Source: Methanothermococcus sp. Ax23 (GTDB lineage: Archaea; AGJL01; Methanococci; Methanococcales; Methanococcaceae). Taken from it: 64,000 bases of DNA. The notes below the pieces were generated by a model. It was not told the origin of the DNA. It was given only the letters and a program-made list of their open reading frames with translations, and made no database searches. A program made the position numbers and the translations under genes. Where the stretch lies: NCBI RefSeq assembly GCF_049075655.1, contig NZ_CP157522.1, forward strand, positions 32,001 through 96,000, in the 5' to 3' direction. How positions within the stretch are numbered: the first letter of the stretch is position 1; every line of letters begins with the position of its first letter. This document shows positions 626 to 63,570 of the stretch, piece after piece.

Positions 626-1633
626 TTATTTGTTAATAGATGATGGTGCTCTAGTTTTGCTTATTAGATAATCAAATAATTCGAATGCGTCATCCATTTT
701 TTCTAGTTCCCTTATATTGATAGTTTTTACACGCCCTATGTCTTTTGCCCCTTTTTCTAAGATTAATAATGAATGGCTATTTAATATTGATGATAGCTGA
801 TTTACAATTAATGCCTTTTTTCTAGTTTCTTCGGTTTCCATCTCTTCAATATTTGTTAATAACAATGTATTTATATGATATTCTTCATATTCATAAATAT
901 CATGTTTTTCAGCAACTGCATCAAATGGTGCTTTTTTTGTCTCAATCATGTTGAATCCTAATTCATTAAGTAAATTCATCACATGTAGTTTAAATTCCTC
1001 ATCGTATCTATTAACATATTTATTGTTATCATCACAGGTTTCAGTGTTGAAAGTTTCATCTTCGTTTATTTCTAATTCCAAAGGTATTCCTTTAACTAAT
1101 GGAACATCCAAATACTGCTCTATTTTTAAAGCAACTTCAATGGAAGGATTTGCTTTATTTTGTTCATATTTATATATTGTTTTTCTTGAAACATTTGAAA
1201 ATTCTGCGAGCTCCCCCACTGAAATATTTAATTTTTCCCTAGTTTCTCTTAAAACATTCCCGTCAATATTCACAAAGAATCCACCTCTGCCAGCATAAAT
1301 AACAGGAGGGCTTCCTTCTAAATACAATTTAAATGTTTCAAATGTTATCGCCTTTATATTGTGTCGTTCATACACAACATCATCTTCCATTGGAACATTT
1401 CGAGTTCTAACTCCAATTAATAATGGAATGGCATTTAATATTCGGGATATTTTTATAAGTTCCATAGATTGTTCATTGCTTAAACTATCTATGTTTTTTA
1501 GTACTTTTATTAAATATTTTACATCATTCTTTCTAGCCAGTATATCAAAGCACGACCTGCTGAATGATTGTGAAACTACAAAATTATATCTATTCAATAA
1601 ATTCATGCACTCTGAAATTATAATCTCTCTCAT
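626..1633 (-). CDS. Archaeal HTH (XRE/cro-C1) transcriptional regulator, MJ1164 family
   Basis: SCFDILARK..LIKVLKNIDS N-domain, YAGRGGFFVNIDG, central HTH (LNISVGELAEFSNVSRKTIYKYE); start reassigned to MREII behind GGTGGG. Confidence 0.85.
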   Translation of the reverse strand: MREIIISECMNLLNRYNFVVSQSFSRSCFDILARKNDVKYLIKVLKNIDSLSNEQSMELIKISRILNAIPLLIGVRTRNVPMEDDVVYERHNIKAITFETFKLYLEGSPPVIYAGRGGFFVNIDGNVLRETREKLNISVGELAEFSNVSRKTIYKYEQNKANPSIEVALKIEQYLDVPLVKGIPLELEINEDETFNTETCDDNNKYVNRYDEEFKLHVMNLLNELGFNMIETKKAPFDAVAEKHDIYEYEEYHINTLLLTNIEEMETEETRKKALIVNQLSSILNSHSLLILEKGAKDIGRVKTINIRELEKMDDAFELFDYLISKTRAPSSINK

Positions 1634-1805
1634 AATCCCACCTATCACTATTTTATATATATTCAAATACACCAATAATATCTAATTCTAAACTATCCAA
1701 TATATATTATTTACGGAAATATAATATAAATATATTTCTTTATATGATAGGTATAAATTATATCATACCTATTATTCCATAGATACACATGGTGAAAATG
1801 ATAAT

Positions 1806-2183
1806 ATGATAGAGTTAAGGGGAAAATCTGCAAAGGAACTTATTAAAAAGGTTGGCGACATAGATTTTGGAGATGAAAAAGAAATATATATAAACACGGA
1901 ATTATCCAAAAATTTGGTTATTGAGATATTGGAAAACTCGAATATTGAGACAATATACCTGCCAGAATCAAAATATAGGCGAACGAACAAAAAACTTATT
2001 GAAGCATTAGAAGGTATTGGTTTAGAAGTTAAGCCCGTAAAGGCAAAAACAGGAAGGCCTTCAAAAAATGAGGAAATTATATCCAAATATCTAGATAAAC
2101 ATCCAAAAGAGATTTCAAAACTAACAGGAATAAATTTGAAAACTGTTGAATATCACTACTATAAACTTAAATCAAAAGAATAG
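1806..2183 (+). CDS. DUF1699-like protein with C-terminal HTH
   Basis: IETIYLPESKYRRT motif, GRP linker, C-terminal HTH (PKEISKLTGINLKTVEYHY). Confidence 0.55.
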   Translation: MIELRGKSAKELIKKVGDIDFGDEKEIYINTELSKNLVIEILENSNIETIYLPESKYRRTNKKLIEALEGIGLEVKPVKAKTGRPSKNEEIISKYLDKHPKEISKLTGINLKTVEYHYYKLKSKE

Positions 2184-2234
2184 GATAATTTATAATTTAC
2201 TTTTTATTATTTATTATAAAATTGGTGAGCTCCT

Positions 2235-3281
2235 ATGGTGATTTGTTGTAAGGTTAATATTAAAGAAGGGGAAAAAATAAGAAGATTTCTTTTAGACAAT
2301 AAACTGTTGAATAAGGATTACAAATTAAAAAAGGAAGATGGTTATTTATATGTTCCACTAATAAATTTGAATAATGATATAAAAAAAGATATAAACAAAA
2401 TAATAAATGATAAAGTTGAATTTGTTGAAGTAGATGATGAATGTTTAAAAAAGGCACATAAAAAACAGATGAATTTTAGAGAGTATCTAATTAAAAACTT
2501 TAAAAAAGAAATAGAAGATGGTCTTATAGCACTATCCTACGATGTAGTTGGTGATATCGTAATAATCCAAATATCCGATGAAATAAACGAAGACATTAGA
2601 AAAAAGATAGGAGAAACTGCATTAAAATTGATTCCATCCATTAAGACAGTGTTTAGGAGAAAAAGCGACATAAAAGGAGAATTTAGAATCAGAGAGTTGG
2701 AGCTCCTCGCAGGAGACTATAAAACATTGACACTTTATAAAGAAAATGGTTATAGGTTATGGGTTGATGTTGAAAAGGTCTATTTTTCACCAAGATTGGG
2801 GTGGGAGCGAAAAAGAATTATGGAGAAAGTGAAATTTGATGATATTGTTGTAGATATGTTTTGCGGAGTTGGACCGTTCTCCATAGCATGCAAAAATGCA
2901 AAGAAGATTTATGCCATTGACATAAATCCCGATGCAATAGAACTGCTTAAAAAAAATATAGAATTAAATAAGCTTCAAAATAAAATAATTCCAATTCTCG
3001 AAGATGTAAGAAAAGTAAATGTGAAGGGAAACCGAATAATAATGAACCTTCCAAAATATGCCCATTTATTTGTGGATAAAGCTCTGGATATCGTCGAAGA
3101 AAATGGCATAATACATTACTACACCATAGGTAAGGATTTCAACGATGCTATTGAATTATTTAAGTCCAAATGTGATTGTGAGATTTTGGAAAAAAGAGTT
3201 GTAAAGTCCTATTCTCCGCGGGAGTATGTTTTAGTATTGGATATAAAAGTCAAACATAAAAATAAAATAAGTAAAACATAA
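2235..3281 (+). CDS. trm5: tRNA (guanine(37)-N1)-methyltransferase Trm5b
   Basis: SYDVVGDIVI, VYFSPRL..ER, DMFCGVGPF, IMNLPK motifs. Confidence 0.92.
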   Translation: MVICCKVNIKEGEKIRRFLLDNKLLNKDYKLKKEDGYLYVPLINLNNDIKKDINKIINDKVEFVEVDDECLKKAHKKQMNFREYLIKNFKKEIEDGLIALSYDVVGDIVIIQISDEINEDIRKKIGETALKLIPSIKTVFRRKSDIKGEFRIRELELLAGDYKTLTLYKENGYRLWVDVEKVYFSPRLGWERKRIMEKVKFDDIVVDMFCGVGPFSIACKNAKKIYAIDINPDAIELLKKNIELNKLQNKIIPILEDVRKVNVKGNRIIMNLPKYAHLFVDKALDIVEENGIIHYYTIGKDFNDAIELFKSKCDCEILEKRVVKSYSPREYVLVLDIKVKHKNKISKT

Positions 3282-3308
3282 AATAAAATAGAAAATATAA
3301 AAAATTTA

Positions 3309-6001: not shown

Positions 6002-6436
6002 ATGAACGAAGAAATACAAAAACAATTTTATGAATTAGAATTATACAACCAGCAGGTTAAAAAACTCCAAGAAGAGCTCGGAAAGATAGAGATTATGAAA
6101 ATGGAGTTAATGAAATCAATAGAATCCATGGAAGGATTGAAAGAATCAAAAGAACTTTTAATCCCATTAGGCGGCGGAGCATTTGTAAAAGCAGAAGTTA
6201 TTGACAGCGAAAAAGTTATAGTTGGAGCAGGTGCAGACGTTTTCCTTGAAAAAAACATAGACGAAGTTATCGAAGACTTCAAAAAATCCTCAGAAGAACT
6301 AACCAATGCAGAAACGATGGTTAAAGAACAGATAGAAAAAACTGTTAAATTCATGGATAAAATGCAGCAAGATTTGGAGAAAAAAGTTAGATTAATGGAA
6401 GGCCAGCAGCAACCTCCTGCATCAACTTCTCAATAA
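6002..6436 (+). CDS. pfdA: Prefoldin subunit alpha
   Basis: [28 protein letters not shown] beta-hairpins between coiled coils. Confidence 0.95.
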
Positions 6437-6715: not shown

Positions 6716-6921
6716 ATATTACAAGGAACATTATATAGCATATATTATTTACGAATGCTATATATAGTAAATGCTGTGGGAGCTCACATTTATAATAAAA
6801 ATTGGGGGAGATTCCAAACTTGCTTCTAACTATTTAACCATAATATTAGGAGTAGTTATGAAATTCGAAGATTTTGTTTTTGGACGCCCCCCCTGTGATA
6901 AAATTAAAATAGGTTGATTAT

Positions 6922-11465: not shown

Positions 11466-14400
11466 ATGAAAGAGGTTAAAGGAACAGTTAATTTTAGAGA
11501 AATGGATAAAGAAATAAAAAAATTTTGGGAAGATAATGAAATATACCAAAAGGTAAAAAAACTAAACGAACACTATCCAGAATATTATTTTGTAGATGGT
11601 CCTCCATACTGTTCTGGTGCGATACATTTGGGAACTGCATGGAATAAAACAATAAAAGACACAGTATTGAGATTTAAGAGAATGCAAAATTATAATGTTC
11701 TCGATAAAGCGGGCTGGGATATGCACGGGCTTCCTATTGAAGTAAAGGTTGAAAATGAATTCAACATAAAATCAAAAAAGGACATTGAAACAAAAATTGG
11801 AACAACAGAATTTATTGAAAAATGTAAGGAATTTGCACTGAGAAATAAGGAAGTAATGGAGAATCAGTTTAAAAATTTAGGAATATGGCTTGACTGGGAA
11901 AATGCATACATGCCTATAAAAAACGACTATATAGAGTCAGGATGGTGGAGTTTAAAAAAGGCACATGAAAAAAATCTTCTTTCAAAAGATTTAAGGGTTG
12001 GATATTGGTGTCCAAGATGTGAAACTTCACTTGCAGAACATGAGGTAAGAGGAGAATATAAAGAAGTTCTCGACCCATCAGTTTATGTTAAATTTAAACT
12101 AATGGATGAAAAAGAAAAAGATACCTACCTTGTAATTTGGACAACAACACCATGGACTTTAATGTCAAATCTTCTTGTTTCAGTTCATCCAGATTTCGAT
12201 TATGCCTATGTTGAAGTTGTTTTAGAAAGAGATGGAGAAGAGATAAAAGAAACATGGATAATAGCTGAGGCATTAGTTGAGGAAGTGATGAAAAAGGCAG
12301 GTAAAAGCAACAATATAAAATCTTACAACATAATAAAGACAGTAAAAGGAGCGGATTTAGAAGGGATAAAATATATACATCCACTGCTGGAAGAAAACGA
12401 AAGACAGAAAGAATTTGCAGAAATCGAAAATGCCCATACTGTGGTATTGGGCGAGCATGTTAGTTTAGATGGTGGAACAGGTTTAGTTCATACTGCACCA
12501 GGGTTTGGTGAAGAGGACTTTGAAGTTGGTAAAAAATACGATGTTCCGATATATTCCCCAATAGATGACGAAGGAAGATATATAGAAGGAAAATGGAAAG
12601 GAACCTTTGTAAAAGATGCTGATGACGATGTAATAGAAACATTAAAAAATAAAAATCTCTTAGTTTCAGCTGGAAAGATAAAGCACACGTATCCGCACTG
12701 TTGGAGATGTAAAACACCACTTTTATTTAGAGCTACGGAGCAATGGTTCTTAACTATATCAAAGATAAAGGATGACATAATAGAGCATGCAAAAACCGTT
12801 GATTGGGTGCCAAACTGGGTAGAAACAAGGTATATAAATGGAGTTAAGTTCGTTGGAGACTGGAATATATCAAGGCAGAGATACTGGGGAATACCACTTC
12901 CAATATGGGTATGTGAAGAATGCGGAAAATATGAAGTTATAGGAAGTGTTGAAGAATTAAAGGAAAAAATGATAAACGACATTCCATTGGATGATTTGCA
13001 TAAACCAACAGTTGATAAGATTATTTTAAAATGTAGCTGTGGAAAGGAAATGAAGAGGGTGCCTGATGTTCTCGATGTCTGGTATGATTCAGGACTTGCT
13101 CCTTATGCTTCAATAAATGCCAAAGAACTTAAAAAAGCTGATTTCATCGTTGAAGGAAATGACCAAGTTACAAAATGGTTCTATTCCCAGCATGCATTAA
13201 GTGCAATTGTATTTAACGATATACCATACAAAAAATGTATGATGCACGGATTTGCACTTGATGAAAACGGAAACAAAATGAGTAAAAGTTTAGGAAATGT
13301 TGTAAATCCTGATGAAGTAGTGGAAGAGTATGGTGCGGATTTACTGAGGTATTATTTACTTAGTGCAAACAAGGCATGGGAAGATATAAGATTCTCATAC
13401 AATGAGCTCGGCGAGGTAAAAAGTTTATTCAATACACTTTGGAACTCATACACATTTGCAGTTAATTATATGGTGCTTGATAACTTTGTTCCAAATGAGG
13501 AATATATGAATTATTTAAGGGATGAAGATAAATGGATAATAAGCAAAATAAACAGCTTAACAAAGGAAATAATTGAGGATTTAGAAATTCCGCATCTCCA
13601 TTCATACACATGGAAATTAAGGGAATTCATACTTAATGATTTAAGCAGATGGTATATTAAACTCATAAGAAGCAGAACATGGATGGAGAAGGACGACCCT
13701 GACAAGCTTTCAGCATACCAAACATTATACTATGTTTTAATGAAATTGATTACAATCCTATCGCCAGTTGCACCGCACATAAGCGAAAAGATATATCAAA
13801 ACATGAAAACAGAGGATATGCCAGAAAGTGTATTCATGAATAAAATAACTATTGATGAGGAACTCATAGACAGAACACTTGAAGAAGATATTGAGGTTGT
13901 AAGGGAAATTGTAGATGCCATATTGAGAGGAAGGGACAAGGTAAAACACACACTGAGGTATCCAATATCAAAAATAATACTTCCAAAGAGCATTGAAAAT
14001 GTAGTGGAAAAATACGGATATATCATAAAAGAACAAGGCAATGTTAAAGAAATAGATGTTGAAGAGTTCAAAGGAAACATGACTGTTAAGCCAAATTATA
14101 GAGAGCTCGGAAAGGTATTCAAAAGTGAAGTTCCAAATGTTGTAAAAATCATTAACTCCATGAATCCAAATGAGCTCAGTGAAAAATTGAAAGAAGAAGG
14201 AAAAATAACAATTGATGGATATGAGATAAAACCTGAATATGTTGAGTTTAAAATAGAAATTCCAGAAAACATTGTTGGTATGGAGTTTTCAAAAGGAAAT
14301 GTTTATATAAACATTGAACTAACTGAGGATATTATAAAAGAAGGGCTTATGAGGGAGGTAATTAGAAGAATCCAGTCAATGAGAAAAGATATGGATTTGG

Positions 14401-14588
14401 ATATTGAAGAGAAGATAAAGGTAAAAATGGAAGGCATTGAATTCAGTGAAGATACATTAAAATCCATTGAGAAAGAGGTTAGAGGAACATTCTTTGATGA
14501 AATAAAACCAGATTATGAACAGGAATGGGAAATAAAGACACCAAATAAGGAAGTTTATAGGATAAAAATAGGGGTAGAAAAATTATAA
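11466..14588 (+). CDS. ileS: Isoleucine--tRNA ligase
   Basis: DGPPY..GAIHLG, WTTTPWTL, GTGLVHTAP, KMSKS. Confidence 0.98.
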   Translation: MKEVKGTVNFREMDKEIKKFWEDNEIYQKVKKLNEHYPEYYFVDGPPYCSGAIHLGTAWNKTIKDTVLRFKRMQNYNVLDKAGWDMHGLPIEVKVENEFNIKSKKDIETKIGTTEFIEKCKEFALRNKEVMENQFKNLGIWLDWENAYMPIKNDYIESGWWSLKKAHEKNLLSKDLRVGYWCPRCETSLAEHEVRGEYKEVLDPSVYVKFKLMDEKEKDTYLVIWTTTPWTLMSNLLVSVHPDFDYAYVEVVLERDGEEIKETWIIAEALVEEVMKKAGKSNNIKSYNIIKTVKGADLEGIKYIHPLLEENERQKEFAEIENAHTVVLGEHVSLDGGTGLVHTAPGFGEEDFEVGKKYDVPIYSPIDDEGRYIEGKWKGTFVKDADDDVIETLKNKNLLVSAGKIKHTYPHCWRCKTPLLFRATEQWFLTISKIKDDIIEHAKTVDWVPNWVETRYINGVKFVGDWNISRQRYWGIPLPIWVCEECGKYEVIGSVEELKEKMINDIPLDDLHKPTVDKIILKCSCGKEMKRVPDVLDVWYDSGLAPYASINAKELKKADFIVEGNDQVTKWFYSQHALSAIVFNDIPYKKCMMHGFALDENGNKMSKSLGNVVNPDEVVEEYGADLLRYYLLSANKAWEDIRFSYNELGEVKSLFNTLWNSYTFAVNYMVLDNFVPNEEYMNYLRDEDKWIISKINSLTKEIIEDLEIPHLHSYTWKLREFILNDLSRWYIKLIRSRTWMEKDDPDKLSAYQTLYYVLMKLITILSPVAPHISEKIYQNMKTEDMPESVFMNKITIDEELIDRTLEEDIEVVREIVDAILRGRDKVKHTLRYPISKIILPKSIENVVEKYGYIIKEQGNVKEIDVEEFKGNMTVKPNYRELGKVFKSEVPNVVKIINSMNPNELSEKLKEEGKITIDGYEIKPEYVEFKIEIPENIVGMEFSKGNVYINIELTEDIIKEGLMREVIRRIQSMRKDMDLDIEEKIKVKMEGIEFSEDTLKSIEKEVRGTFFDEIKPDYEQEWEIKTPNKEVYRIKIGVEKL

Positions 14589-14590
14589 GG

Positions 14591-30686: not shown

Positions 30687-31568
30687 ATGGATTTAGAAAA
30701 TTCATTTTTAAATGCAATTTCAGAAAGTTTTAAAGCATATGATAAATACGGAGCTCGAAGCAATAAAAAATTGATACCAATTCATAAATGGTTTGCGAAA
30801 GTTATTGAGAATAAATTAGGAGATAGATATTATACAAAATGTTTAGGCAATGGTGGAGAATATAAATTAAATGGTAAATACTACCCAAAAAATTTGGATA
30901 TATCCATATTCAATAAAGAAACTGATAAATTGGTAGCAACAATAAGTTTTAAATTCGTGACTTCTAACTATAAACAAAATGCTAATAATTATTTTGAAAA
31001 TTTATTGGGAGAAACGGCAAATATTAGACGAGTAAATGTAGGATTTGCACACTTTTTAGTATTACGGGGACATACGCCATATTACACAAAAAATAAAGGC
31101 AACTTAAGGGGAGAACTTAAAAAAATAGAATTAATTTCTGAAAAAGATTTAATGAAGTATATTAAATTATATAATGATTTAGATTTTCCACATAAACCAA
31201 ATGTTTTAGGAATTGCTTTAATAGATTTTGATGACAGTGAAAATGCGTATTTTGTAGATTTAGATAGCATGAAAATTTCAGAAGAGGATATTGGTAAGAT
31301 AAATAAAATATTAGAAAAAGCAGGATTTTCAAATGAAAAAATCAATGAAATAAATAAAAAGCTAAAAGAAGTAGGATTTTCAGAAGCAGATATTGAAGAA
31401 ATAGAGAAAGAGTTAAAAAAAGCAAAAATACCAAAAAAAGATATTAAAGAAATAAATAAATTTTTAAACAATATTGGATTTTCAGAAAAAGGTATTAAAG
31501 CATTAAATGAAATGTCGTTAAACAAATTTATAAAACGAGTTGTTGGATTATGTCAGCTGATGGATTGA
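30687..31568 (+). CDS. Putative type II restriction endonuclease with C-terminal 17-aa repeats
   Basis: PD-(D/E)xK-like K.LDISI...ISFKF..SNYKQNANNYFENLLGE; overlaps the downstream MTase gene. Confidence 0.7.
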   Translation: MDLENSFLNAISESFKAYDKYGARSNKKLIPIHKWFAKVIENKLGDRYYTKCLGNGGEYKLNGKYYPKNLDISIFNKETDKLVATISFKFVTSNYKQNANNYFENLLGETANIRRVNVGFAHFLVLRGHTPYYTKNKGNLRGELKKIELISEKDLMKYIKLYNDLDFPHKPNVLGIALIDFDDSENAYFVDLDSMKISEEDIGKINKILEKAGFSNEKINEINKKLKEVGFSEADIEEIEKELKKAKIPKKDIKEINKFLNNIGFSEKGIKALNEMSLNKFIKRVVGLCQLMD

Positions 31569-33253
31569 GCTCTAAAAAAATAGATAAAAATAAATTAAAC
31601 GGTGTGGTATATACCCCTAAATGGATAGTTGAAACAATTTTGGACAATTTAGGATATACTGTAAATAACAACATATATTATAAAAAAATAATTGACCCGT
31701 CTTGCGGGGATGGTGCTTTTTTAAAAGAAGTTGTTGAAAGGTTTATTACTGATGCCTTAAACTCAAATAAATCAATTTCCGAAATAAAAAATCTTTTAGA
31801 ACAGAATGTTTATGGAATAGATATTGATAAAAATGCTATTGAATTATGCAGAATTAATTTAACCAATATTGCTAAAAAATACGGCATCCATGATGTTAAT
31901 TGGAATTTGATAAATAATGATAGCACAGATAAAGCATGGATTTCAAAACTATTTAAAAAATTTGATTATGTTGTTGGAAACCCACCATATATTAGAATCC
32001 AAAATTTAGGAAAAGAAAAGCGAAATAAAATTCAAAAAGAATGGAAACTGTGCAAATCTGGCTCTACTGACATATATATAGCATTTTTTGAGTTGGGATA
32101 TTATTTATTAAACGATACTGGAAAATTAGGATATATCACGCCCAACACCTATATAAAAACATCAGCAGGAAAAGATTTAAGACTGTTTATCAAAAATAAA
32201 AAAATTTTGGAATTATTAATTGATTTTAGACATTACCAAGTATTCGAAAACGCCACTACCTATTCATTAATAACAATACTATCCAAATCATATAGACAAA
32301 ATAAGTTTAAACTGTATTATGGAGACTCCAATAAAAAAATTAAATTCATAGATGAAATTGATTTAAACAATTTGAACGATAATAATTGGATATTATGCAC
32401 CAATGATGTATTAATAAAGATTAAAGAGATAGAAAATAGAGGAGCTCCGCTTGGAAAGATAGCAGATATTCATGTTGGAATTACCACACTTGCAGATAGT
32501 TATTACATATTTAAAGACCCCATACTTAAAGAAAAAACTGCAATAATAAAATTAAAGGATGGTAGGGAGTTTGAAATTGAAAAGGACATTTTAAAACCAA
32601 TAGTAAAAGCATCAGTTTTAAAGAGCTCAGACGAGGAGCAAAATCGTTATGTAATTTTCCCATATAAACTTAAAAATAATAAACATGTAATAATACCCGA
32701 AAATGAATTAAAAGAAAAATATCCTTTAACATACAATTATTTCCTAAAAATTAAAGATATATTACTTGCGAGAGATAAGGGCAAACCAAATCCAGTAGCA
32801 TGGTATGCTTTTGGAAGAAGTCAAGGATTAGATACTTCATTTGGCAAAAAAATATTAACTTCACCGTTAAATAAAAAGCCAAACTTTATAGTATGGGAAA
32901 AAGAAGATTATACATTTTATGCTGGATATTGTATAAAATACGATGGAGATTTGTATGAATTGGCAAAGGAATTAAACAGTTCAGATATGGAATTTTATAT
33001 AAATCATGTAAGTAGGAGTTATCAAAATAATTATAAATCATATTCAAAAACATTCATTAAAAATTTTGGAATATCCAACCCGAAAATTATTGGAAAATTT
33101 AAAAATAATCGCACATCGGTAAAAGAAGTCAATAAAAATGGGGATAACTATAAAGATAAAAATAAAAATAAGGGCAAAAATACCAAACAAACTACATTAA
33201 CAAATTATTTAACTAAGGCAGATGATTTATTAAGTATAAATACCAATCTATAA
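31550..33253 (+). CDS. N6-adenine DNA methyltransferase (gamma class, Eco57I/TaqI-like)
   Basis: VYTP, IDPSCGDGAF (motif I), VVGNPPY (motif IV), C-terminal TRD. Confidence 0.9.
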   Translation: MSADGLSSKKIDKNKLNGVVYTPKWIVETILDNLGYTVNNNIYYKKIIDPSCGDGAFLKEVVERFITDALNSNKSISEIKNLLEQNVYGIDIDKNAIELCRINLTNIAKKYGIHDVNWNLINNDSTDKAWISKLFKKFDYVVGNPPYIRIQNLGKEKRNKIQKEWKLCKSGSTDIYIAFFELGYYLLNDTGKLGYITPNTYIKTSAGKDLRLFIKNKKILELLIDFRHYQVFENATTYSLITILSKSYRQNKFKLYYGDSNKKIKFIDEIDLNNLNDNNWILCTNDVLIKIKEIENRGAPLGKIADIHVGITTLADSYYIFKDPILKEKTAIIKLKDGREFEIEKDILKPIVKASVLKSSDEEQNRYVIFPYKLKNNKHVIIPENELKEKYPLTYNYFLKIKDILLARDKGKPNPVAWYAFGRSQGLDTSFGKKILTSPLNKKPNFIVWEKEDYTFYAGYCIKYDGDLYELAKELNSSDMEFYINHVSRSYQNNYKSYSKTFIKNFGISNPKIIGKFKNNRTSVKEVNKNGDNYKDKNKNKGKNTKQTTLTNYLTKADDLLSINTNL

Positions 33254-38271: not shown

Positions 38272-41200
38272 ATGGAAATAGAGCATATATTAATTAATAA
38301 AAATGTGTTAAAGGAGAGGTTAAGCAATTTTGATTTAAATGAAATACCAGATTTAGAGGAAAAACGAAAAATAATAGATAGTTGGATAACTGAAATAGAG
38401 GATAAAGGAATAGAAAAAATAAAAGAGGAATCATTAAAGGGTAAATTTTTAGAGGATATATTTTCAAAAGTATTGGGTTATAAATCAGTAATTGGAAATA
38501 AAGAATGGAATTTAGAAGTGGAGCAAAAAACACGGGTTGATAGTAAAAAGGCAGACGGTGCATTGGGATTTTTTAGCAATGATAAAAAAGATATTCATGC
38601 AGTAATTGAATTGAAAGATGGTAAAACCAACTTAGATTTAAAACAGAGCTCGCGAAAAGACAACAGAACACCAGTAGAACAGGCGTTTGATTATGCCACT
38701 AAATCGGGGAAAAACTGTAAATGGGTCATAGTTTCAAATTTTAAAGAGATACGACTCTATAATTACACAAATACGAGAATGGAAGAGTATCATCTTTTTG
38801 ATATATCAAAACTTAGGGATGATGAGAAATTTAAAGAATTTTATTATATATTGAACTTTAACAATTTAATAAATAAAAACGGAGAGTCAGAAACTGAAAA
38901 ACTTTGTTCTGAAACTGTAATTCGTGAAAAAGAAATTACTAAAAAGTTTTACAATGAAATTAAGAATATTAGGATAAATTTATTTGAGACGCTTAAAAAA
39001 GAAAATCCAAATATTGATGAGCTCACCTTATTTGAAAAGACACAGAAACTTATTGATAGGTTTTTATTTGTTTATTTTGCAGAGGATAAGGGAATTCTGC
39101 CACCAAATACGGTTTATAGAGTAAGTAAGGAGGCAAAATCGAGCGGATTTATAAAAATTACTCAATGGGATGCGTTTAAGCAATTATTTGAATATATTAA
39201 CGAAGGATGCCCCGACTTTGGAATATATGCCTATAACGGCGGTTTGTTTAAAAAGGATGAGGTATTGGACAATTTAAATATACCTGATGAAATTATTATG
39301 GAGCTCGTGCAATTATCGGAATATGATTTTGATGGGGATTTAAATGTTAATATTTTAGGGCATATATTTGAGCAGTCCATATCTGATATTGAGGAAATAA
39401 AGGCATCAATCAATGGAGAACCTTATGATGAAAAACAGGGGAAGAGGAAAAAGGACGGTATTTTTTATACTCCTGAATTTATAACAAGGTATATTGTTGA
39501 AAAATCCATTGGTGGATGGCTTGAAGATAGAAAAAGGGAAATAGGGATTGAATTATTTGAAAGTATATCTCCTGAACAGATGGGGAAAGATAAAATTAAA
39601 AAAGGAAAGAAATTTGAATATAAAAAGAATTCCAAATCATACAAATCGTTAATGGCGTGGAAAAAATATAAGGAGATTTTAAAGAACATTAAGGTAATAG
39701 ACCCCGCTTGTGGTTCTGGTGCGTTTTTAATTCAAGCATTAAATTATTTGGTTGAAGAAGGGGATAAAGTAAATAAGGCAATTAGGGAATTGCAGGGGGG
39801 AACAGAGGAATTATTCACATTAAAAGCGGATATTTTAAAAAATAACCTTTATGGAGTTGATATAAATAGGGAGTCCGTAGAAATTACAAAACTATCTTTA
39901 TGGCTTAATTCTGTTAGGAAAGGGGAAAAACTGACATCACTTGATGACAATATAAAATGTGGCAATAGTTTATTTTTTGATTGGCATGGTGAATTTAAAG
40001 AAATATTTGAAAATGGGGGCTTTGATGTTGTAATTGGTAATCCCCCCTATGTTAGACAGGAAAGAATTACCGAAATAAAACCAGAATTGGAAGGAAATTA
40101 TAAAACATACTCGGGAACAGCTGATTTATTTGTTTATTTCTATGAATTGGGATATAATATTTTAAAAGATGGGGGATATTTAGGATACATTACAAGTAAT
40201 AAATGGATGAGGGCGAAATATGGGGAAAATTTAAGGGAGTTTTTAAAGGAAAATGTATTAATAAGAGAGATTGTAGATTTAGGCGGTGCAAAAATCTTTG
40301 AAGATGCCAGTGTTGATACAAATATACTAATATTTAAAAAAGAAGATGATAAGGGAATTATTAGAAACAACAAATTTAAAGCAGTTTTATTTAATGATTT
40401 TAAAAATAATGAAGAGTTTGAGGAACATATAAAAAATAAAGGATTTACAATGTGTCAGAGCTCGCTAAGTAAGGACGGATTTATTCTTATAGATAAGAAT
40501 ATTTTAAATCTTAAAAAGAAGATTGAAAAAATTGGAATTCCTTTAAAGGATTGGGATATAAAAATAAATTTTGGAATTAAAACAGGCTTTAACGATGCCT
40601 TTATTATTGATGGAAAAACTAAGGATGAATTAATTAAAAAAGACCCAAAGAACAAAGAGATAATAAAGCCGATTTTAAGGGGAAGGGATATAAAAAGGTA
40701 TGGTTATGAATTTGCGGATTTATGGCTTATAAATACGCACAATGGATTAAAAAATAAAAATATTCCACCTGTGGATGTTCCCAAAGATTATCCTGTAATT
40801 TATGAATGGTTAAAACAATTTGAGGAAAAACTTAAAAAAAGAAGAGATAAAGGGGATAATTGGTGGAATTTAAGAAATTGTGCTTATTTAGAGGAATTTG
40901 AGAAAGAAAAAATAATCTTTTCTAGGATAGTTAAAAAACCCCAATTTTCATATGATGAAAATGGATGTTATGCAGAAGCTACAACTTACATTCTTACAGG
41001 AAATGAAAATTTGAAATATTTACTATTGCTGTTAAATTGTAGTGCAATATATAATATATTTTATAAATTCTATTCAGGTGGTGGCATAGATGGTGAAATT
41101 AAAATATATAAATTGAATGACCTACCTATCCCAAAAATCCCCGAAAACGAACAAATCCCATTCATAGAAAAAGCTGATAAAATGATTGAATTAAATAAAA

Positions 41201-41508
41201 AATTCATAAACAAGAAAAATAAATTTTTAAATAGGTTAAAAGGAATTGGAGTAAATAAAATTTCCAAAAAATTAGAAAACTTCCATACATTAGACTTTAA
41301 CGAACTTATAAAAGAATTAAAAAAGCAGAAAATAAAACTCTCCCTAAAAGAACAAGATGAATGGGAAGACTATTTCAACGACTACAAAAATGAATTAAAC
41401 GAAATTCTATCAGAAATAGAAAAAACAGATAAAGAAATCGACAAAATGGTTTATAAATTATACAACTTAACAGATGAAGAAATTAATATAATTGAAAACA
41501 TAAACTAA
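38272..41508 (+). CDS. Type IIG restriction-modification enzyme (Eco57I family, fused REase-MTase-TRD)
   Basis: ADGAL..IELK nuclease, NGGLF, GIFYTP, DPACGSGAFL, IGNPPY, TaqI-like C-terminal TRD. Confidence 0.92.
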   Translation: MEIEHILINKNVLKERLSNFDLNEIPDLEEKRKIIDSWITEIEDKGIEKIKEESLKGKFLEDIFSKVLGYKSVIGNKEWNLEVEQKTRVDSKKADGALGFFSNDKKDIHAVIELKDGKTNLDLKQSSRKDNRTPVEQAFDYATKSGKNCKWVIVSNFKEIRLYNYTNTRMEEYHLFDISKLRDDEKFKEFYYILNFNNLINKNGESETEKLCSETVIREKEITKKFYNEIKNIRINLFETLKKENPNIDELTLFEKTQKLIDRFLFVYFAEDKGILPPNTVYRVSKEAKSSGFIKITQWDAFKQLFEYINEGCPDFGIYAYNGGLFKKDEVLDNLNIPDEIIMELVQLSEYDFDGDLNVNILGHIFEQSISDIEEIKASINGEPYDEKQGKRKKDGIFYTPEFITRYIVEKSIGGWLEDRKREIGIELFESISPEQMGKDKIKKGKKFEYKKNSKSYKSLMAWKKYKEILKNIKVIDPACGSGAFLIQALNYLVEEGDKVNKAIRELQGGTEELFTLKADILKNNLYGVDINRESVEITKLSLWLNSVRKGEKLTSLDDNIKCGNSLFFDWHGEFKEIFENGGFDVVIGNPPYVRQERITEIKPELEGNYKTYSGTADLFVYFYELGYNILKDGGYLGYITSNKWMRAKYGENLREFLKENVLIREIVDLGGAKIFEDASVDTNILIFKKEDDKGIIRNNKFKAVLFNDFKNNEEFEEHIKNKGFTMCQSSLSKDGFILIDKNILNLKKKIEKIGIPLKDWDIKINFGIKTGFNDAFIIDGKTKDELIKKDPKNKEIIKPILRGRDIKRYGYEFADLWLINTHNGLKNKNIPPVDVPKDYPVIYEWLKQFEEKLKKRRDKGDNWWNLRNCAYLEEFEKEKIIFSRIVKKPQFSYDENGCYAEATTYILTGNENLKYLLLLLNCSAIYNIFYKFYSGGGIDGEIKIYKLNDLPIPKIPENEQIPFIEKADKMIELNKKFINKKNKFLNRLKGIGVNKISKKLENFHTLDFNELIKELKKQKIKLSLKEQDEWEDYFNDYKNELNEILSEIEKTDKEIDKMVYKLYNLTDEEINIIENIN

Positions 41509-41697
41509 TTTAATTTTTTTATTATTTTTAGAGTTGTTATTTTGGGAGCTCCTATATTATATATCTCATTATTCGAATTTAAATTAAATTATATATTGAA
41601 TTAGATAAAGTAAAAAATAATAAATAATACGGAGTTATATTCAATTTAGCGAATAATAAACCTTTATTTTTTGATTGATAAATTACGGGGTTTAAAT

Positions 41698-41922
41698 ATG
41701 TCAAATAAAAAAGAACTTCTATTAAATATGATTTTTGAAATTTTCAAAATAATATTTACCGTGGAATTAACATTATTGGCTGGTGTGATTTTAAAAATAG
41801 CATTTGAACCGCAATATATATTTATGGGTTTAAAAGTAATTGTATTTGGATTGTTTATTATATTAATTACATTGTGGTCTTTCGGAGCTCCTATATTTTA
41901 CTTATATAATCGCATTGATTAA
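41698..41922 (+). CDS. Small two-TM hypothetical protein
   Basis: MSNKKELL... with two hydrophobic segments. Confidence 0.5.
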   Translation: MSNKKELLLNMIFEIFKIIFTVELTLLAGVILKIAFEPQYIFMGLKVIVFGLFIILITLWSFGAPIFYLYNRID

Positions 41923-44855: not shown

Positions 44856-45911
<1,056 letters not shown>

Positions 45912-46605: not shown

Positions 46606-46998
46606 GTGATTTCTTCAAATATTGAGGATTATCTAGAAAGAATTTATTTATTTATTCAAAAACATAAAAGACCTGTAAAAACCACTGAGCTCGCAAAAAT
46701 ATTGAATGTTAATCCATCTGCAATAACTAGCATGGCTAAAAAATTACACTCAGAAGGGTATGTAATTTACGAACCCTATGTTGGTATCCTATTAAGTAAA
46801 AAAGGAGAAGAGGTTGCTAAAAAAACCATAAGAAAACATAGGATTATTGAAACATTTCTCAGAGATTGTCTTGGCATGGATGCAGATAAATCATCGGAGG
46901 AGGCATGCAGAATAGAGCATGCAATTTCAGAAGAAACTATTGAAAAACTTTATGAGTTTATAAATAAATTAAAATCTAAAAAGGGGAACGAAAATTAG
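46606..46998 (+). CDS. DtxR/MntR family metal-dependent regulator
   Basis: EDYLERIY, RKHRIIETFL, EACRIEH. Confidence 0.93.
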   Translation: MISSNIEDYLERIYLFIQKHKRPVKTTELAKILNVNPSAITSMAKKLHSEGYVIYEPYVGILLSKKGEEVAKKTIRKHRIIETFLRDCLGMDADKSSEEACRIEHAISEETIEKLYEFINKLKSKKGNEN

Positions 46999-47774: not shown

Positions 47775-48593
47775 ATGAAAGTATTTGAAAATATCAAAAA
47801 TGTTGGTAAAGTTATCAGATTGGAGAGAGTATTCAACAAAAAATCAGAAAAAACAGTTATTATTCCTATGGACCATGGAGTATCATCAGGACCCTTGGAT
47901 GGCTTAAAAGATATGAAAAAAGCCATTAATTCAGTAGCGGATGGCGGGGCAAATGCAGTATTGGTTCATAAAGGTATTGTTAGACATGGGCATAGGGGAT
48001 ACGGAAAGGACATAGGTTTAATAATTCACCTTTCAGCTGGAACTTCATTATCGCCAGACCCAAACGAAAAGGTCGTAGTCACAACAGTTGAAGAAGCTAT
48101 AAGAATGGGGGCTGATGCGGTTTCAATCCATGTGAATGTTGGAGCAGATACTGACTGTGAAATGTACAAAGACTTAGGTAAAATAGCAGAAGTTTGTGAA
48201 TACTGGGGAATGCCTTTAATAGCTATGATGTACCCAAGAGGTAAAAAAATACCTGATGAGAGAGACCCAGAAGTTGTAGCACATGCGGCAAGACTCGGTG
48301 CCGAGCTCGGGGCAGACATTATAAAAACAAGTTACACAGGAGACATAGACTCATTTAGGGAAGTCGTAAAGGGATGTCCAGCACCAATCGTAATTGCAGG
48401 AGGACCTAAAACAAATACTGATAAGGAGTTCTTACAAATGGTTAAAGACGCCATAGAAGCAGGTGCAGCAGGAGTTGCAACAGGAAGAAATGTGTTCCAA
48501 CATAAAGATGTTTCAGGAATAACAAAGGCAATATCAATGGTTGTTCATGAAAATGCTGATATTGATGAAGCTTTGAAAGTAATTAAAAATTAA
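47775..48593 (+). CDS. aroA': 2-amino-3,7-dideoxy-D-threo-hept-6-ulosonate synthase (AroA', class I aldolase)
   Basis: [29 protein letters not shown]. Confidence 0.9.
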
Positions 48594-50454: not shown

Positions 50455-51822
50455 ATGAGCTCCGATACTAATGGTAATAATATTAATAATAATTCCATAG
50501 ATTTCAATGAATTTAAAATGATTACAAATGTGGAATTGATTAAGAATGAAAACAAAAATCAGTTGATTATTGAAATAAACAAAAATTACGAAACATCGAT
50601 TACTTTGGATTATGATGTTCAATTGAAGGATGGCATACTTTTTTTAGTTGATGATAGCCTTAAAAAAATAAATAGAAATAGGCTTGAATCTATTAAATCT
50701 GGTATTCTAAATCTAATATCTATAAATATATCCCAGAATTTGATAAATAAAACTACTAAGAGAAAAACATACTACATACACCCGCCAATCCCTTTAATCG
50801 GACATACTGCCTTTGGACTTATAGATAGAGGGACAAATATAATTCAAGTGCGAGGATTAAGTGGATGCAATATAAACTGTCCATTCTGTTCAGTTGATGA
50901 GGGAAGGTATTCAAAAACACGAAAAAATGATTATTATGTTGATTTAGATTATTTAATAGATGAATATAAAAAAATAGTTGAATTTAAAGGAAACAAACAC
51001 ATAGAGGCTCATTTGGATGGTCAGGGAGAGCCATCTTTATATTATCCACTACCTGATTTAGTTCAAAAATTGAATGAAATTAACAAGAAAGGAAAGGGCA
51101 TTGTATCCATGCAGTCAAATGGTATGAACTTAACATATAAGCTAATCGATGAATTGGAAGAAGCAGGGCTACACAGAATGAACCTATCTATAAATGCCAT
51201 AGATGAAAAAATGAGCAGAATTTTATCAGGTAGTAGGGATTATAATATTAATCATGTATTGGACATTGCGGAGTATATAAAAAATTCAAAAATCCATCTC
51301 TTAATAGCACCGCTACTTTTGCCAAATGTCAATGATGAAGAATTTAAAAAAGTAATAGACTACGCCGTTCAGTTGGAAATGAAAAATCCTCAGAATATAA
51401 TAAATCCTATCACCAATAAGAAAAATCCAATAGTAGGAGCTCAGCTATGCCTCACATATCAGTTTGGCAGGAAAATCAAAAAAATGAAGGTATGGAAATT
51501 TAAAAAATTCTATGATTTATTGAAATATTATGAAAATGAATATAAAAAGAACGGCATTGATGTTCAATTGGATACACCGTTATCAAAGGCATTTGGAAAC
51601 CATAGAAGGAAAAAACTTCCAAGTCCATTTAAATTAAACGAAATTATAAGGGCAAAGGTTGTTTTAGATGGAAGGGTAAATGGAGAGGTAATTGGAGTTG
51701 CAAAAGATAGAGTTATCCAGATAATAAATGTCCATCAAAACTATGAAAAACTCATGGGAAAATCTGTTAAAGTTAAAATTTTAAGAACGAAGGATAATGT
51801 ATTTGTCGGAGCTCCGATTTAA
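50455..51822 (+). CDS. Radical SAM protein with C-terminal TRAM domain
   Basis: PLIG..AFGLIDRGTN..QVR, CNINCPFCSVD, DGQGEP. Confidence 0.88.
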   Translation: MSSDTNGNNINNNSIDFNEFKMITNVELIKNENKNQLIIEINKNYETSITLDYDVQLKDGILFLVDDSLKKINRNRLESIKSGILNLISINISQNLINKTTKRKTYYIHPPIPLIGHTAFGLIDRGTNIIQVRGLSGCNINCPFCSVDEGRYSKTRKNDYYVDLDYLIDEYKKIVEFKGNKHIEAHLDGQGEPSLYYPLPDLVQKLNEINKKGKGIVSMQSNGMNLTYKLIDELEEAGLHRMNLSINAIDEKMSRILSGSRDYNINHVLDIAEYIKNSKIHLLIAPLLLPNVNDEEFKKVIDYAVQLEMKNPQNIINPITNKKNPIVGAQLCLTYQFGRKIKKMKVWKFKKFYDLLKYYENEYKKNGIDVQLDTPLSKAFGNHRRKKLPSPFKLNEIIRAKVVLDGRVNGEVIGVAKDRVIQIINVHQNYEKLMGKSVKVKILRTKDNVFVGAPI

Positions 51823-60926: not shown

Positions 60927-61029
60927 ATAAAATTAAAAATACCTCCTATATATCGCCCATATATTTATTCATATATCATATATCAATTAATTACCCAAAT
61001 ATAATAATATCACTAATGAGGTGTAATTC

Positions 61030-62066: not shown

Positions 62067-62207
62067 ATAATTTACACTTAATACTATTTATATTTTGTTA
62101 ATAGAATAATTAGTATTATCAAATAATACTATTTGAAACATTTGGTTTAAAATTGTTTATGATATTTGATATTTTTGTTTTCCACACATTTTTTAATATG
62201 TTTTTCT

Positions 62208-62373
62208 CTATTTGATAAGCCCCTTTTTTCCAGTCTTTACCTTAGTTCTCCACTCATCAAATAATTTCAGTGCTCGGGTCTCTACTTCTTCTTTTAATTT
62301 TAAATACCCTCCAAAACAAAAAGATTAAAACAACTACCAATAACAATACCATTAAATTTAAAATTAAATCCAT
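62208..62373 (-). pseudogene. Possible degraded membrane-anchored protein gene
   Basis: TM-encoding start MDLILNLMVLLLVVVLIFLFWR; a shifted frame continues YLKLKEEVETRALKLFDEWRTK before stopping. Confidence 0.3.
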
Positions 62374-62457
62374 ACTATCAACTTCAACTTATCAAAATAA
62401 TTAAAATAAGTAAATAAATATATAATTATAATTATTAAAATAATATGGGGTGAGATT

Positions 62458-63063
62458 ATTAAAAATAAATTTACAATGATAAGTATAATGTTTATAAGTA
62501 TTCTTATAACTTTTTCTGGATGTTTAGATATATTACCAAATAATAATTATGATGATAATAATTATGGTTATACAAATCCAAATGATTTCCTCAATAACCA
62601 TGAGTATTTTACTGCCAAGGTCGTAAAAATTACCGATGGAGATACAATATGGGTTATGGCTGAAAACGGAACAAAATATAAAATAAGACTTTTGGGCGTT
62701 GATACGCCAGAAATATATCACAAGAACAGCCCGCAAAAATTTTATATTGATAACAATCATCCAATTACCAATATAAGTTATTTGAAAGTTTGGGGGTATA
62801 AAGCAAAAGATTATGCAAAAAATAGACTGGAAAATAAAACTGTTATTGTAGTTTTTGACAATAAGGCACCAAAAAAAGGATATTATGGCAGATATCTCGC
62901 ATACATATATGTAGATGGAAGAGATTTCAACGAAGAATTGATTAAAAATGGATATGCTAGGGTTTATGTGTCTAATTTTGAATTAAAAAATGAATATTTA
63001 AAAGAAGAAAGATATGCAAAAGAAAATAAAATAGGATTATGGAATTTAAGTAATAATAATTAA
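62458..63063 (+). CDS. Thermonuclease (SNase) family lipoprotein
   Basis: FSGC lipobox, DGDT, IRLLGVDTPE, YGRYLAY, G.ARV, GLW; start may be ATT 62458 or ATG 62476. Confidence 0.9.
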   Translation: MKNKFTMISIMFISILITFSGCLDILPNNNYDDNNYGYTNPNDFLNNHEYFTAKVVKITDGDTIWVMAENGTKYKIRLLGVDTPEIYHKNSPQKFYIDNNHPITNISYLKVWGYKAKDYAKNRLENKTVIVVFDNKAPKKGYYGRYLAYIYVDGRDFNEELIKNGYARVYVSNFELKNEYLKEERYAKENKIGLWNLSNNN

Positions 63064-63123
63064 AATAATTAATAATTAGTTTTTTAATGCATGAGCTCTA
63101 CAAGGTATTAATCTAACTATTTA

Positions 63124-63570
63124 TTATTCAATATCAATGCCTTTTTTGATAGATACTTCACTCTTTGGTAAATCAACTATAAGCACACCATTTTCAAATT
63201 TAGCAGATGCTGTATCTTCTTTCACAGTTGCAGGTAATTTTATTGTTCTATATATCTCTTCGTCCTCAGGAATCTCTGAATAAATAATTCTTTCGGATTC
63301 TGTTACCATTAATGGTGTTCTTTTTGCTCTGATTTCTAAGGTGTTTCCAATAGCATTAACTACTATATCTTCCTTATTTACTCCTGGAATCATTGCTATA
63401 ACTTTTATATTATTGTCTCCTTCAATCAATGTAATTGGCATGTATCCTTTACCGGAAATTTCAAGACCACCTGAGCTCATGGTTCTCATGGTAGTCATTC
63501 CAGTCATTGGAGACATAAACATTTCAGTCATTAATTTTTCAATTTCTGAAAATGGATCTCTTCCAAACAT
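63124..63570 (-). CDS. Small heat shock protein Hsp20 (Hsp16.5 type)
   Basis: [39 protein letters not shown]. Confidence 0.95.

Follow-up and report, generated by a model that had tools for sequence, protein, structure and literature searches.

GAGCTC as a highly iterated palindrome in Methanothermococcus sp. Ax23 and a scattered few of its relatives

The window analysed here is a 64,000-nucleotide stretch of the genome of Methanothermococcus sp. Ax23 (contig NZ_CP157522.1; C1:32001-96000 in our numbering), along which the palindrome GAGCTC recurs both inside and between genes. The genome that holds it, referred to as G000 in our comparisons, consists of contigs C1 (1,662,948 bp) and C2 (7,732 bp) and has a GC content of 31.9%; that of the window is 0.28-0.34. 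We find exactly 76 GAGCTC sites in the window, where 100 dinucleotide-preserving shuffles give 3.72 (standard deviation 2.03, largest 9), none of the 100 reaching 76. An earlier reading of the window (hereafter the sequence-only reading) had hand-counted at least 76 sites and put the expectation at about four; every coordinate that it listed is matched. The sites start at 1208, 2227, 2700, 3383, 3681, 4179, 6074, 6780, 7171, 7599, 8029, 8100, 8941, 9476, 10203, 10569, 11098, 13404, 14103, 14172, 16619, 17910, 18433, 19737, 19959, 20971, 21361, 23377, 25599, 27808, 29373, 30082, 30091, 30471, 30751, 31567, 32442, 32623, 33407, 34585, 36326, 37139, 37361, 38169, 38646, 39019, 39301, 40458, 41546, 41885, 42531, 43700, 44623, 44969, 46687, 48303, 49361, 49997, 50457, 51437, 51809, 52786, 52927, 53884, 54002, 54275, 55841, 56473, 58158, 58223, 58307, 58698, 58941, 58965, 63093 and 63473.

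Relative to the predicted open reading frames (ORFs), 42 of the 76 sites are read as GAG-CTC, 17 as xGA-GCT-Cxx and 11 as xxG-AGC-TCx, and the remaining six lie outside ORFs. Those six are found at 2227..2232 (between ORFs 1806-2183 and 2235-3281), 6780..6785 (between ORFs 6002-6436 and 6922-8517), 41546..41551 (downstream of a Type IIG restriction-modification gene that ends at 41508), 41885..41890, 46687..46692, and 63093..63098 (between ORFs 62476-63063 and 63124-63570). The sites therefore do occupy all three frames and the spaces between genes, as had been claimed, and all four of the intergenic sites named at that time are among the six. The same reading had also drawn attention to sites that extend into longer palindromes. 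These are exact as described, namely the 12-bp perfect palindromes GCGGAGCTCCGC at 44966..44977 and TCGGAGCTCCGA at 51806..51817 and the 10-bp perfect palindrome CCGAGCTCGG at 48301..48310, but they are unremarkable, extension occurring at chance frequency: palindromes of 6, 8, 10 and 12 bp around GAGCTC number 53, 19, 2 and 2 in the window, against 54.3, 15.5, 4.4 and 1.8 by chance.

The window is typical of a genome-wide excess. G000 carries 2089 GAGCTC sites, one per 800 bp, where base composition predicts 124.7, for an observed/expected ratio (O/E) of 16.75. This is the top hexamer of the genome, and the runners-up, AGCTCC/GGAGCT (O/E 7.8), overlap it. Counted on both strands, GAGCTC occurs 4178 times and the remaining 15 NAGCTN words 281-650 times each, at or under expectation, while AGCT overall has an O/E of 1.03. 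A maximal-order Markov model gives GAGCTC an O/E of just 1.60, because the pentamers on which that expectation is built, GAGCT and AGCTC, lie mostly inside GAGCTC itself (4178 of 5138 occurrences of each, or 81%), so that the model absorbs the signal. The flanks of the sites are near background, the strongest bias being for G at -1 and C at +1, at 0.38 of sites.

Genes of G000 were delimited by crude ORF prediction, which gave 1587 ORFs covering 84% of the genome. They contain 1909 sites (1.36/kb), divided by frame into 1074 GAG-CTC, 614 xGA-GCT-Cxx and 221 xxG-AGC-TCx. Non-coding DNA, at 26% GC, has 180 (0.68/kb) where 10.3 are expected; the resulting O/E of 17.4 is the same fold excess as in the genome overall. 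When synonymous codons are permuted within genes (30 replicates) 184.9 +/- 8.6 sites remain, and at most 201, against the 1909-1910 observed in coding sequence. GAG-CTC is the commonest encoding of Glu-Leu, accounting for 1075 of 3890 where codon usage predicts 65.8, and CTC is rare elsewhere. The most depleted encodings of this dipeptide are the single-transition neighbours of the motif, GAA-CTC (O/E 0.30) and GAG-CTT (O/E 0.32). Among the one-off neighbours in non-coding DNA, AAGCTC/GAGCTT occur 27 times against 58.8 expected and GAACTC/GAGTTC 58 times against 58.8. Codon usage alone had been judged an unlikely cause from the sequence, and the judgement holds: the excess persists by composition (16.75), under the Markov model (1.60), against synonymous shuffling (1910 against 184.9) and in non-coding DNA (17.4). 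The enrichment is a DNA-level, hexamer-specific and frame-independent property, and not a by-product of coding.

Five of 40 Methanococcales genomes are enriched, with 2089 (G000), 2070 (G012), 1645 (G010), 1515 (G013) and 1321 (G003; 1.4 Mb, 90% complete) copies of GAGCTC. The remaining 35 have 4-229, the other members of Methanothermococcus among them 4-115, and a scan of the whole phylum brought up no genomes beyond these Methanococcales. Enrichment is thus far from equal among relatives, and dipeptide usage, which the sequence-only reading had set up as an alternative, does not explain it. Within the 880 kb of G013 that were counted, GAGCTC has an O/E of 10.0 and the other NAGCTN words 0.46-1.92, so that the excess is hexamer-specific there too. 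A maximum-likelihood tree of 29 genomes from a single gene, that for isoleucyl-tRNA synthetase (IleRS; window 11466..14588, + strand), has the enriched genomes in three places: G000, G003 and G012 group together, G010 branches off separately and deeply within their genus, and G013 falls in the sister clade beside three genomes that are not enriched. Seven non-enriched Methanothermococcus genomes make up a further, well-supported clade nested within the genus. This scatter calls for at least two or three events, be they gains, losses or transfers. The same gene served for a comparison of orthologous sites, in which those at 13404, 14103 and 14172 are common to G000, G003 and G012 and are not present in G010, G013 or G005.

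The last of these, G005, is a complete non-enriched genome in which AGCT is strongly avoided in every context (535 sites, O/E 0.11) and GAGCTC occurs 14 times. Per IleRS locus of about 6 kb, AGCT occurs 0-8 times in the seven-genome clade against 13-21 times in the enriched genomes. Other short words are avoided as well. G000 strongly avoids GATC (O/E 0.03), GTAC (0.07), ACGT (0.10), CGCG and GCGC (0.13) and CTAG (0.14), together with the hexamers GTCGAC, GTTAAC, GTATAC, GTGCAC, CTTAAG, CTATAG and CTCGAG (8 sites, none of them non-coding). In G005, GATC (1.23) and GTAC (1.04) are not avoided, while AGCT (0.11) and CGCG (0.04) are. Because the avoided words differ, these sister species must have had very different restriction histories.

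Wherever GAGCTC can be obtained cheaply by synonymous choice, G000 nearly always has it: at 67 of 68 Gly-Ala-His, 125 of 128 Gly-Ala-Pro, 34 of 37 Arg-Ala-Pro and 29 of 31 Arg-Ala-Gln positions. Longer mutational paths go with lower occupancy, as at Gly-Ala-Leu (177/271), Glu-Leu (1074/3868) and x-Ser-Ser (220/1144). Taken as an odds ratio relative to codon usage away from GAGCTC motifs, the bias is about 186 for G-A-[PHQ], 64 for R-A-[PHQ], 40 for E-L and 13 for [MW]-S-S, with 17 in non-coding DNA. In orthologous columns [GR]-A-[PHQ] is encoded as GAGCTC in 248 of 258 cases in G000 and 99 of 124 in the enriched G013, against 3 of 151 in the non-enriched G005, where the motif is used in 9 of 3627 opportunities in orthologous peptides. 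The peptides themselves also differ. Over the same columns G000 has more of the motif-compatible ones than G005 has (258 against 151 for [GR]-A-[PHQ], 2645 against 2253 for E-L, and 988 against 800 for x-S-S), although [GR]-A-[LR] runs the other way (381 against 423). Amino-acid differences at the frame-2 sites of G000 are above background (103 of 136, where about 61% is expected), while those at frames 0 and 1 are not. Protein sequence itself appears to have been shifted to some extent by the pressure toward GAGCTC.

Nearest-neighbour spacing in G000 is approximately exponential (mean 797, median 532 against 552 expected, coefficient of variation 1.09), with 24 gaps below 20 bp against 52 expected and 117 of 20-50 bp against 75. 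The number of sites per 5 kb is near-Poisson (mean 6.27, variance 7.59) and does not follow GC (r = 0.02), and Glu-Leu occupancy is flat, at 0.28-0.30, however far off the next site lies, over 0-1000 bp. Neither spacing control nor diminishing returns is seen, and each hexamer therefore behaves independently. The sites are created in place by point substitution. Alignment gaps are touched by 0.6% of them and by 0.7% of all codons, and GAGCTC is found in none of 116 two-codon insertions relative to G005 and in none of 106 relative to G013. With gap contact at background, insertions without the motif and flanks that are near-random, an origin by insertion, or as a dispersed repeat of the REP or MITE type (repetitive extragenic palindrome or miniature inverted-repeat transposable element), is rejected.

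Along the genes of G000 the sites are even save for a dip in the first decile; no intergenic class is preferred in that genome, nor is there a set distance to start codons. A wider context, in which CGGAGCTCC precedes a TAT-like or TAT-rich stretch, is limited to just seven intergenic sites. At C1:190457, 191122, 1233000 and 1233658 it stands directly upstream of paralogous genes of about 100 codons that resemble toxin-antitoxin pairs, and one of the small genes associated with it encodes a protein 99% identical to that of a G013 gene. Contig C2, presumably a plasmid, has four sites in 7.7 kb. Site density is 1.48/kb in genes that have a G005 homologue and 0.97/kb in those that have none, and accessory genes predominate in four of the six longest site-free stretches examined. 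Accessory DNA is thus the poorer in sites, as slow accumulation in resident DNA would give. Two long stretches with GC of 0.26-0.27 and runs of genes of 320-430 codons may be mentioned here. C1:113847-124945 (11.1 kb) has no GAGCTC, and four of its nine genes are without a G005 homologue; C1:1342926-1355392 (12.5 kb) has one GAGCTC, nine of its 11 genes are without such a homologue, and it looks like an acquired island.

Turnover was counted in codon alignments of selected loci, amounting to 8,000-10,000 codons for the close pairs. Between G000 and G012 (8006 codons, 87.6% amino-acid identity) 27 sites are common to both, eight are private to G000 and seven to G012, so that 77-79% of sites are common against an identity of 43.6% for the average hexamer. 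Between G000 and the more distant G010 (8673 codons, 76.1%) eight are common, 33 private to G000 and 28 to G010, which is no more than the hexamer background of 21.7%. Across the genome, at Glu-Leu positions conserved between G000 and G013, the motif is present in G013 at 89 of the 299 that carry it in G000 and at 89 of the 740 that do not, a weak correlation. Sites are kept between close relatives and turned over between distant ones. The roughly 30 private sites in each of G000 and G010 indicate that many were gained after the split, which argues against a process that is extinct. The sequence-only reading had proposed a lineage-specific process that both generates and maintains GAGCTC; above-background sharing between G000 and G012 and independent gains in G000 and G010 are in keeping with this.

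Where only one of two genomes has the motif, the aligned hexamers differ at more positions than do controls of the same composition: 2.40 against 1.58 for G012 (n=15, P=0.0008), 2.98 against 2.03 for G010 (n=61), and 1.71 against 1.54 for G003 (n=17, not significant). The extra differences fit a word that is held against AT and codon pressure and that is built, or decays, fast. In the G000-G003 comparison (10,363 codons, 89.1%) 28 sites are common, 14 are private to G000 and three to G003, and the losses in G003 are mostly transitions (GAACTC, GAGTTC, GAGCTT, AAGTTT). The density of G003 is intermediate and possibly decaying. Clustered losses in this genome were considered as foreign DNA and this was ruled out, the contig concerned (C19) having normal AGCT content and a G000-like avoidance of GATC.

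In pattern, GAGCTC is much like HIP1 (GCGATCGC), the cyanobacterial highly iterated palindrome. Both, HIP1 according to PMC4390886 and PMC5861425, are palindromes in more than 10-fold excess, with about one copy per kb, in all frames and between genes, conserved above background and patchy among relatives. The analogy that had been drawn from the window is thus sound at the level of pattern, including its lineage-specificity. GAGCTC differs in being archaeal and in having 6 bp where HIP1 has 8. HIP1 tracks GATC and CGATCG methylases, whereas no methyltransferase co-distributes with GAGCTC. Periodicity on the kb scale is reported for HIP1, while the nearest-neighbour spacing of GAGCTC, which is a different measure, is random; and we list as a further difference that sister lineages of the enriched genomes avoid the core AGCT. 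Restriction-site avoidance is likewise a genome-wide bias on a 4-6-bp palindrome of Type II kind, the AGCT of G005 (O/E 0.11) being an example, but GAGCTC is enriched instead. To go by extracts of PMC4687349, over-representation is rare and modest across the thousands of genomes surveyed there, with a Kr of about 1.4-1.5 and the CCGG of Helicobacter as the main case.

We found no description of GAGCTC enrichment in Methanococcales in the main texts, supplements apart, of open-licence literature and preprints, in agreement with the sequence-only reading, which knew of none. A term search of the main text of Elhai 2015 (PMC4390886) returned no mention of archaea or GAGCTC, and similar searches in a review of archaeal restriction-modification (PMC11033074), the M. 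aeolicus methylome (PMC10113651) and the restriction-site survey (PMC4687349) returned no mention of such an enrichment.

Candidate machinery was sought by protein family in up to 31 genomes, the MutS_V, NucS_C and ComEC families being searched in five (G000, G012, G010, G013 and G005). For the C5-methyltransferase family (PF00145), G000 and G003 give no match and G010 and G012 nothing above threshold, and the C5 methylase of G013 resembles genes of non-enriched genomes. Vsr (PF03852) is found in none of 31 genomes, the profile matching in its controls E. coli, B. subtilis and Caulobacter. MutS (MutS_V), NucS (NucS_C) and ComEC are each found in none of the five. A SacI-type endonuclease (PF09566, RE_SacI) was likewise matched in none of 31 genomes, but the control also matched in none of 14 reference genomes, so that the power of this search is unproven.

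Methyltransferases were collected with the profiles PF00145, PF01555, PF02086 and PF02384. Those of G000 comprise, besides a stand-alone PF01555 enzyme of 300 aa and an Eco57I-family enzyme of 567 aa, a Type III Mod-Res pair, a Type I HsdM and two MmeI-like Type IIG enzymes. In G012 there are a plasmid-borne Type IIG, one D12-class enzyme and two HsdM genes, and in G010 just one PF01555 candidate, 453 aa long. Two of the G000 genes lie in the window. The 567-aa Eco57I-family DNA methyltransferase (31550..33253, + strand) occurs only in G000 and G003 and is excluded as the determinant. The MmeI-like Type IIG restriction-modification enzyme (38272..41508, + strand, 1078 aa) has nothing closer than 33% identity in the relatives, judging from searches in which two other enzymes were the queries, and belongs to a class that presumably reads asymmetric sites. 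The two genes are 5 kb apart, with HypF and a thiamine pyrophosphate-dependent enzyme encoded between them. The 300-aa beta-class methylase was rejected, since five genomes that are not enriched have orthologues of 74-77% identity, one being partial, while G010, G012 and G013 have none, as was the Type IIG enzyme that we call H, full-length only in G000 and G013. The G003 orthologue of the 300-aa enzyme is 92% identical and interrupted by an in-frame TAA (G003:C37:1957-2847, L024). A D12-class methylase of G003 is split into two ORFs (G003:C69:3568-4327, L125); the disrupted genes could be real pseudogenes or errors in the assembly of this metagenome-derived genome.

Over the 31 genomes, then, no methyltransferase is common to the five enriched ones. 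The methyltransferase and Vsr connection suggested on the strength of the window is not supported by gene content, on several counts: G000 has no PF00145 match, Vsr is at 0/31, no amino-methyltransferase of G000 is shared by the other enriched genomes, and neither MutS nor NucS was found in the five genomes. The methyltransferase association of HIP1 is therefore not reproduced here at the level of genes.

A gene-content screen was made with one negative genome (G005) and about half of G013. Of 1587 ORFs in G000, 388 have no good match in G005, and 96 of these are matched in the first 880 kb of G013; 30 of the 96 were inspected, eight of them through Pfam. Three DNA-related candidates, confirmed by Pfam, were followed, and none tracks the trait. 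An McrBC pair occurs in nine of 31 genomes, seven of them non-enriched, and is not in G003, G010 or G012; in G000 this pair, of the modification-dependent Type IV, is at C1:1527725-1531046, and its 2-kb McrB-like gene is without GAGCTC. An AlkD-type glycosylase is in just three of 31. The third, a PLD/HKD-type nuclease of 196 aa anchored in the membrane at its N terminus (C1:1153260-1153850), was found in each of the five enriched genomes and in neither G004 nor G005, but it also occurs in the non-enriched G016.

The explanation we favour, tentatively and at somewhat below an even chance, is that GAGCTC is kept by a site-autonomous, sequence-specific fixation bias, that is, by repair or gene conversion biased toward the hexamer. 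Point substitutions would create GAGCTC in place wherever the local sequence tolerates it, near-cognate sequences would be biased by repair or conversion toward the exact word, and the fixation bias would then hold each hexamer independently of the others. The substrate would be the polyploid genome copies, which in relatives are equalised by gene conversion; this is stated for M. maripaludis by Hildenbrand et al. 2011, as cited in an excerpt of PMC4056108. We prefer a conversion bias because occupancy is independent of neighbours, because cheap opportunities are near-saturated over some 2000 sites, and because peptide content is shifted. We infer that the force is a conversion-type drive rather than selection on each site, and that the reader is a dimeric protein of restriction-enzyme type. 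A fuller account is possible and distinctly more doubtful: a restriction-enzyme-like GAGCTC reader, coupled to repair or conversion in a polyploid, would write near-cognates into GAGCTC on chromosome and plasmid alike with no cognate methyltransferase, changing proteins in the process, and together with AGCT-restricting sister species it would shape gene flow among vent methanogens.

Several observations weigh against a fixation bias of this kind. No enzyme was found for it, and no methyltransferase or repair family among those searched tracks the trait. The bias varies more than 10-fold with context (about 186, 64, 40 and 13, with 17 in non-coding DNA), which a single equilibrium per-site bias does not predict, so that added assumptions are needed, either slow mutational paths or a cost attached to CTC and AGC, which are rare codons. 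Outside coding sequence just one class of one-off neighbours, AAGCTC/GAGCTT, is depleted. The turnover counts have a small base and the phylogeny comes from the IleRS gene alone. Furthermore, the excess conservation between G000 and G012 is equally predicted by selection on each site.

Such selection, which we think unlikely, would make each GAGCTC a functional site, either for a nucleoid or chromosome-organising protein or as a Chi-like self-mark that stops a nuclease. The G000-G012 counts (27 common, eight and seven private, against a hexamer background of 0.436) speak for it, and conservation above background is the argument used for selection on HIP1 in passages of PMC5861425. The resident plasmid is enriched and enrichment is uniform along the chromosome, as would suit a functional site. 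Selection on each site fits less well than a conversion bias because the fitness share of one in 2000 sites should be tiny. Spacing and occupancy are independent of neighbouring sites, and the occupancy of 95-98% at cheap positions would be reached more easily by conversion bias than by weak additive selection. Nor did we find a conserved flank, an extended motif or a candidate reader.

GAGCTC might instead be an archaeal DNA-uptake or recombination signal that accumulates by molecular drive, as do the uptake signal sequences (USS) of Pasteurellaceae and the DNA uptake sequences (DUS) of Neisseriaceae; we rate this as rather improbable. USS and DUS are words of 9-12 nt, non-palindromic, at about one per kb, and drive without a function for each site is possible for them. 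GAGCTC shares with them its copies inside genes, where tolerated, and its lineage-specific dialects. Bacterial uptake sequences have a density similar to the one site per 0.8 kb seen here, and the patchy, dialect-like distribution of GAGCTC, with 4-115 sites in other Methanothermococcus, would allow strong discrimination between lineages. Known uptake sequences are, however, longer and non-palindromic, and USS and DUS are read by a pilin or an unknown receptor, whereas GAGCTC is a 6-bp palindrome without extended consensus or interference between neighbours. Occupancy is flat down to 0-30 bp, which would not be expected if one signal per fragment sufficed. ComEC was not found in the five genomes searched, and the archaeal transporter is unknown according to extracts of PMC10133366; from the same extracts, M. 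maripaludis is naturally transformed via type IV-like pili and its DNA receptor is unknown. For HIP1, a gain in transformation efficiency in a cyanobacterium is reported in bioRxiv 10.1101/2024.09.10.611283.

Exchange between enriched lineages would also fit an uptake signal. Beyond rRNA, four or five segments of G000 (about 8 kb) have 89-91% DNA identity to half of G013, and none comparable is found in the complete G005; these segments are probably horizontal transfers between two enriched lineages. They are very few, and the sample is far too small to carry the point. Such segments lie at C1:1516305-1521531, 355534-357513, 190670-191119 and 740946-741539. G013 belongs to a different genus, with a median protein identity to G000 of 74%, and one of the segments covers a seven-gene block at 92-98% protein identity. 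One segment comprises the C-terminal part of the Type IIG enzyme H together with a 216-aa partner that has no Pfam match.

A methyltransferase acting on GAGCTC or its AGCT core, coupled to methylation-linked repair that would create and keep the sites (very-short-patch-like correction of deaminated methyl-cytosine, or methyl-directed mismatch repair), seems to us improbable. Elhai is said to have proposed methyl-directed mismatch repair for HIP1, and the pattern of GAGCTC is like that of HIP1 and other cyanobacterial highly iterated palindromes. Stand-alone Type-II-like methyltransferases occur in every enriched genome, at least one in each, the families differing; G003, which has the lowest density, has a stop codon in its orthologue of the 300-aa methylase; and transition neighbours are depleted in coding DNA. 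This last feature, together with a short palindrome in excess, recalls the Dcm/Vsr system of E. coli (CCWGG). The CCWGG effect is far smaller than that on GAGCTC, and the systems differ in that Vsr was found in none of the 31 genomes, G000 has no C5 methylase match and, in non-coding DNA, the product of an inner-C transition is not depleted. PF00145 is found in neither G000 nor G003, MutS and NucS are at 0/5, and the 300-aa, 567-aa and Type IIG H enzymes all fail to follow the trait. In excerpts of PMC4390886 the cyanobacterial palindromes mostly co-occur with methyltransferases of different classes, and AGCT-specific N4- or C5-cytosine methyltransferases (m4C or m5C) are listed for several archaea in excerpts of PMC11033074. 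Different, non-orthologous methyltransferases of the same specificity may serve each enriched lineage. The single-molecule real-time (SMRT) methylome of M. aeolicus PL15/Hp, a strain not tied to any of the genomes compared, lists no GAGCTC motif in passages of PMC10113651.

That the motif is the decaying relic of a process now stopped is very improbable. It would account for the failure to find machinery and for the 14:3 imbalance of private sites between G000 and G003, with its mostly transitional losses, but not for the roughly 30 private sites each of G000 and G010 in about 8,700 codons; private sites between G000 and G012 are balanced (eight and seven) and shared ones far above the hexamer background, and the 95-98% saturation of cheap positions would be hard to keep against AT pressure without a force. 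An artefact of composition or coding (codon usage, dipeptides, AGCT content or a dispersed repeat), to which the Markov O/E of just 1.60 might seem to point, is practically out of the question, being refuted by the pentamer overlap (81%), the shuffle (185 against 1910), the non-coding O/E (17.4), the 9 of 3627 opportunities used in G005 and the near-random flanks.

Several other features of the window may be recorded. The gene for SepSecS (O-phosphoseryl-tRNA(Sec) selenium transferase; Pfam E 3.9e-152) lies at 25100-26422 on the - strand, and from its presence the organism uses selenocysteine. The only structural RNA found in the window is tRNA-Val(TAC), at 8670-8744 on the - strand. About 1.2 kb at 23505-24677 matches seven places in G012 at 76-82% and is there multi-copy and like an insertion sequence. 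Two 435-aa ORFs, at 15331-16638 in the window and at C1:1510598-1511905, are both 53% identical to the same G013 locus and appear to be copies of one gene of a mobile element.

The cyanobacterial puzzle of highly iterated palindromes has lasted for some thirty years, mainly because HIP1 is present in nearly all cyanobacteria and the effect of candidate methyltransferases is confounded with that of phylogeny. GAGCTC looks like an independent archaeal case with a different word, in which enriched and non-enriched species, one of the former with intermediate density, occur within one genus. No shared methyltransferase and no Vsr, MutS or NucS was found in the genomes searched, and the phenomenon can therefore be separated from the methylation hypothesis. 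Its effect is measurable, in near-saturated synonymous opportunities and in a shift of peptides. Provided that the sites are unmodified, the enriched genomes would be cut by SacI roughly once per 800 bp. In these genomes a force acting at the level of DNA distorts codon-pair statistics, the detection of horizontal transfer and phylogenetic models. Some of the relatives are genetically tractable and naturally transformable, and the choice between selection and conversion, as well as the identity of the reader, is therefore open to experiment.

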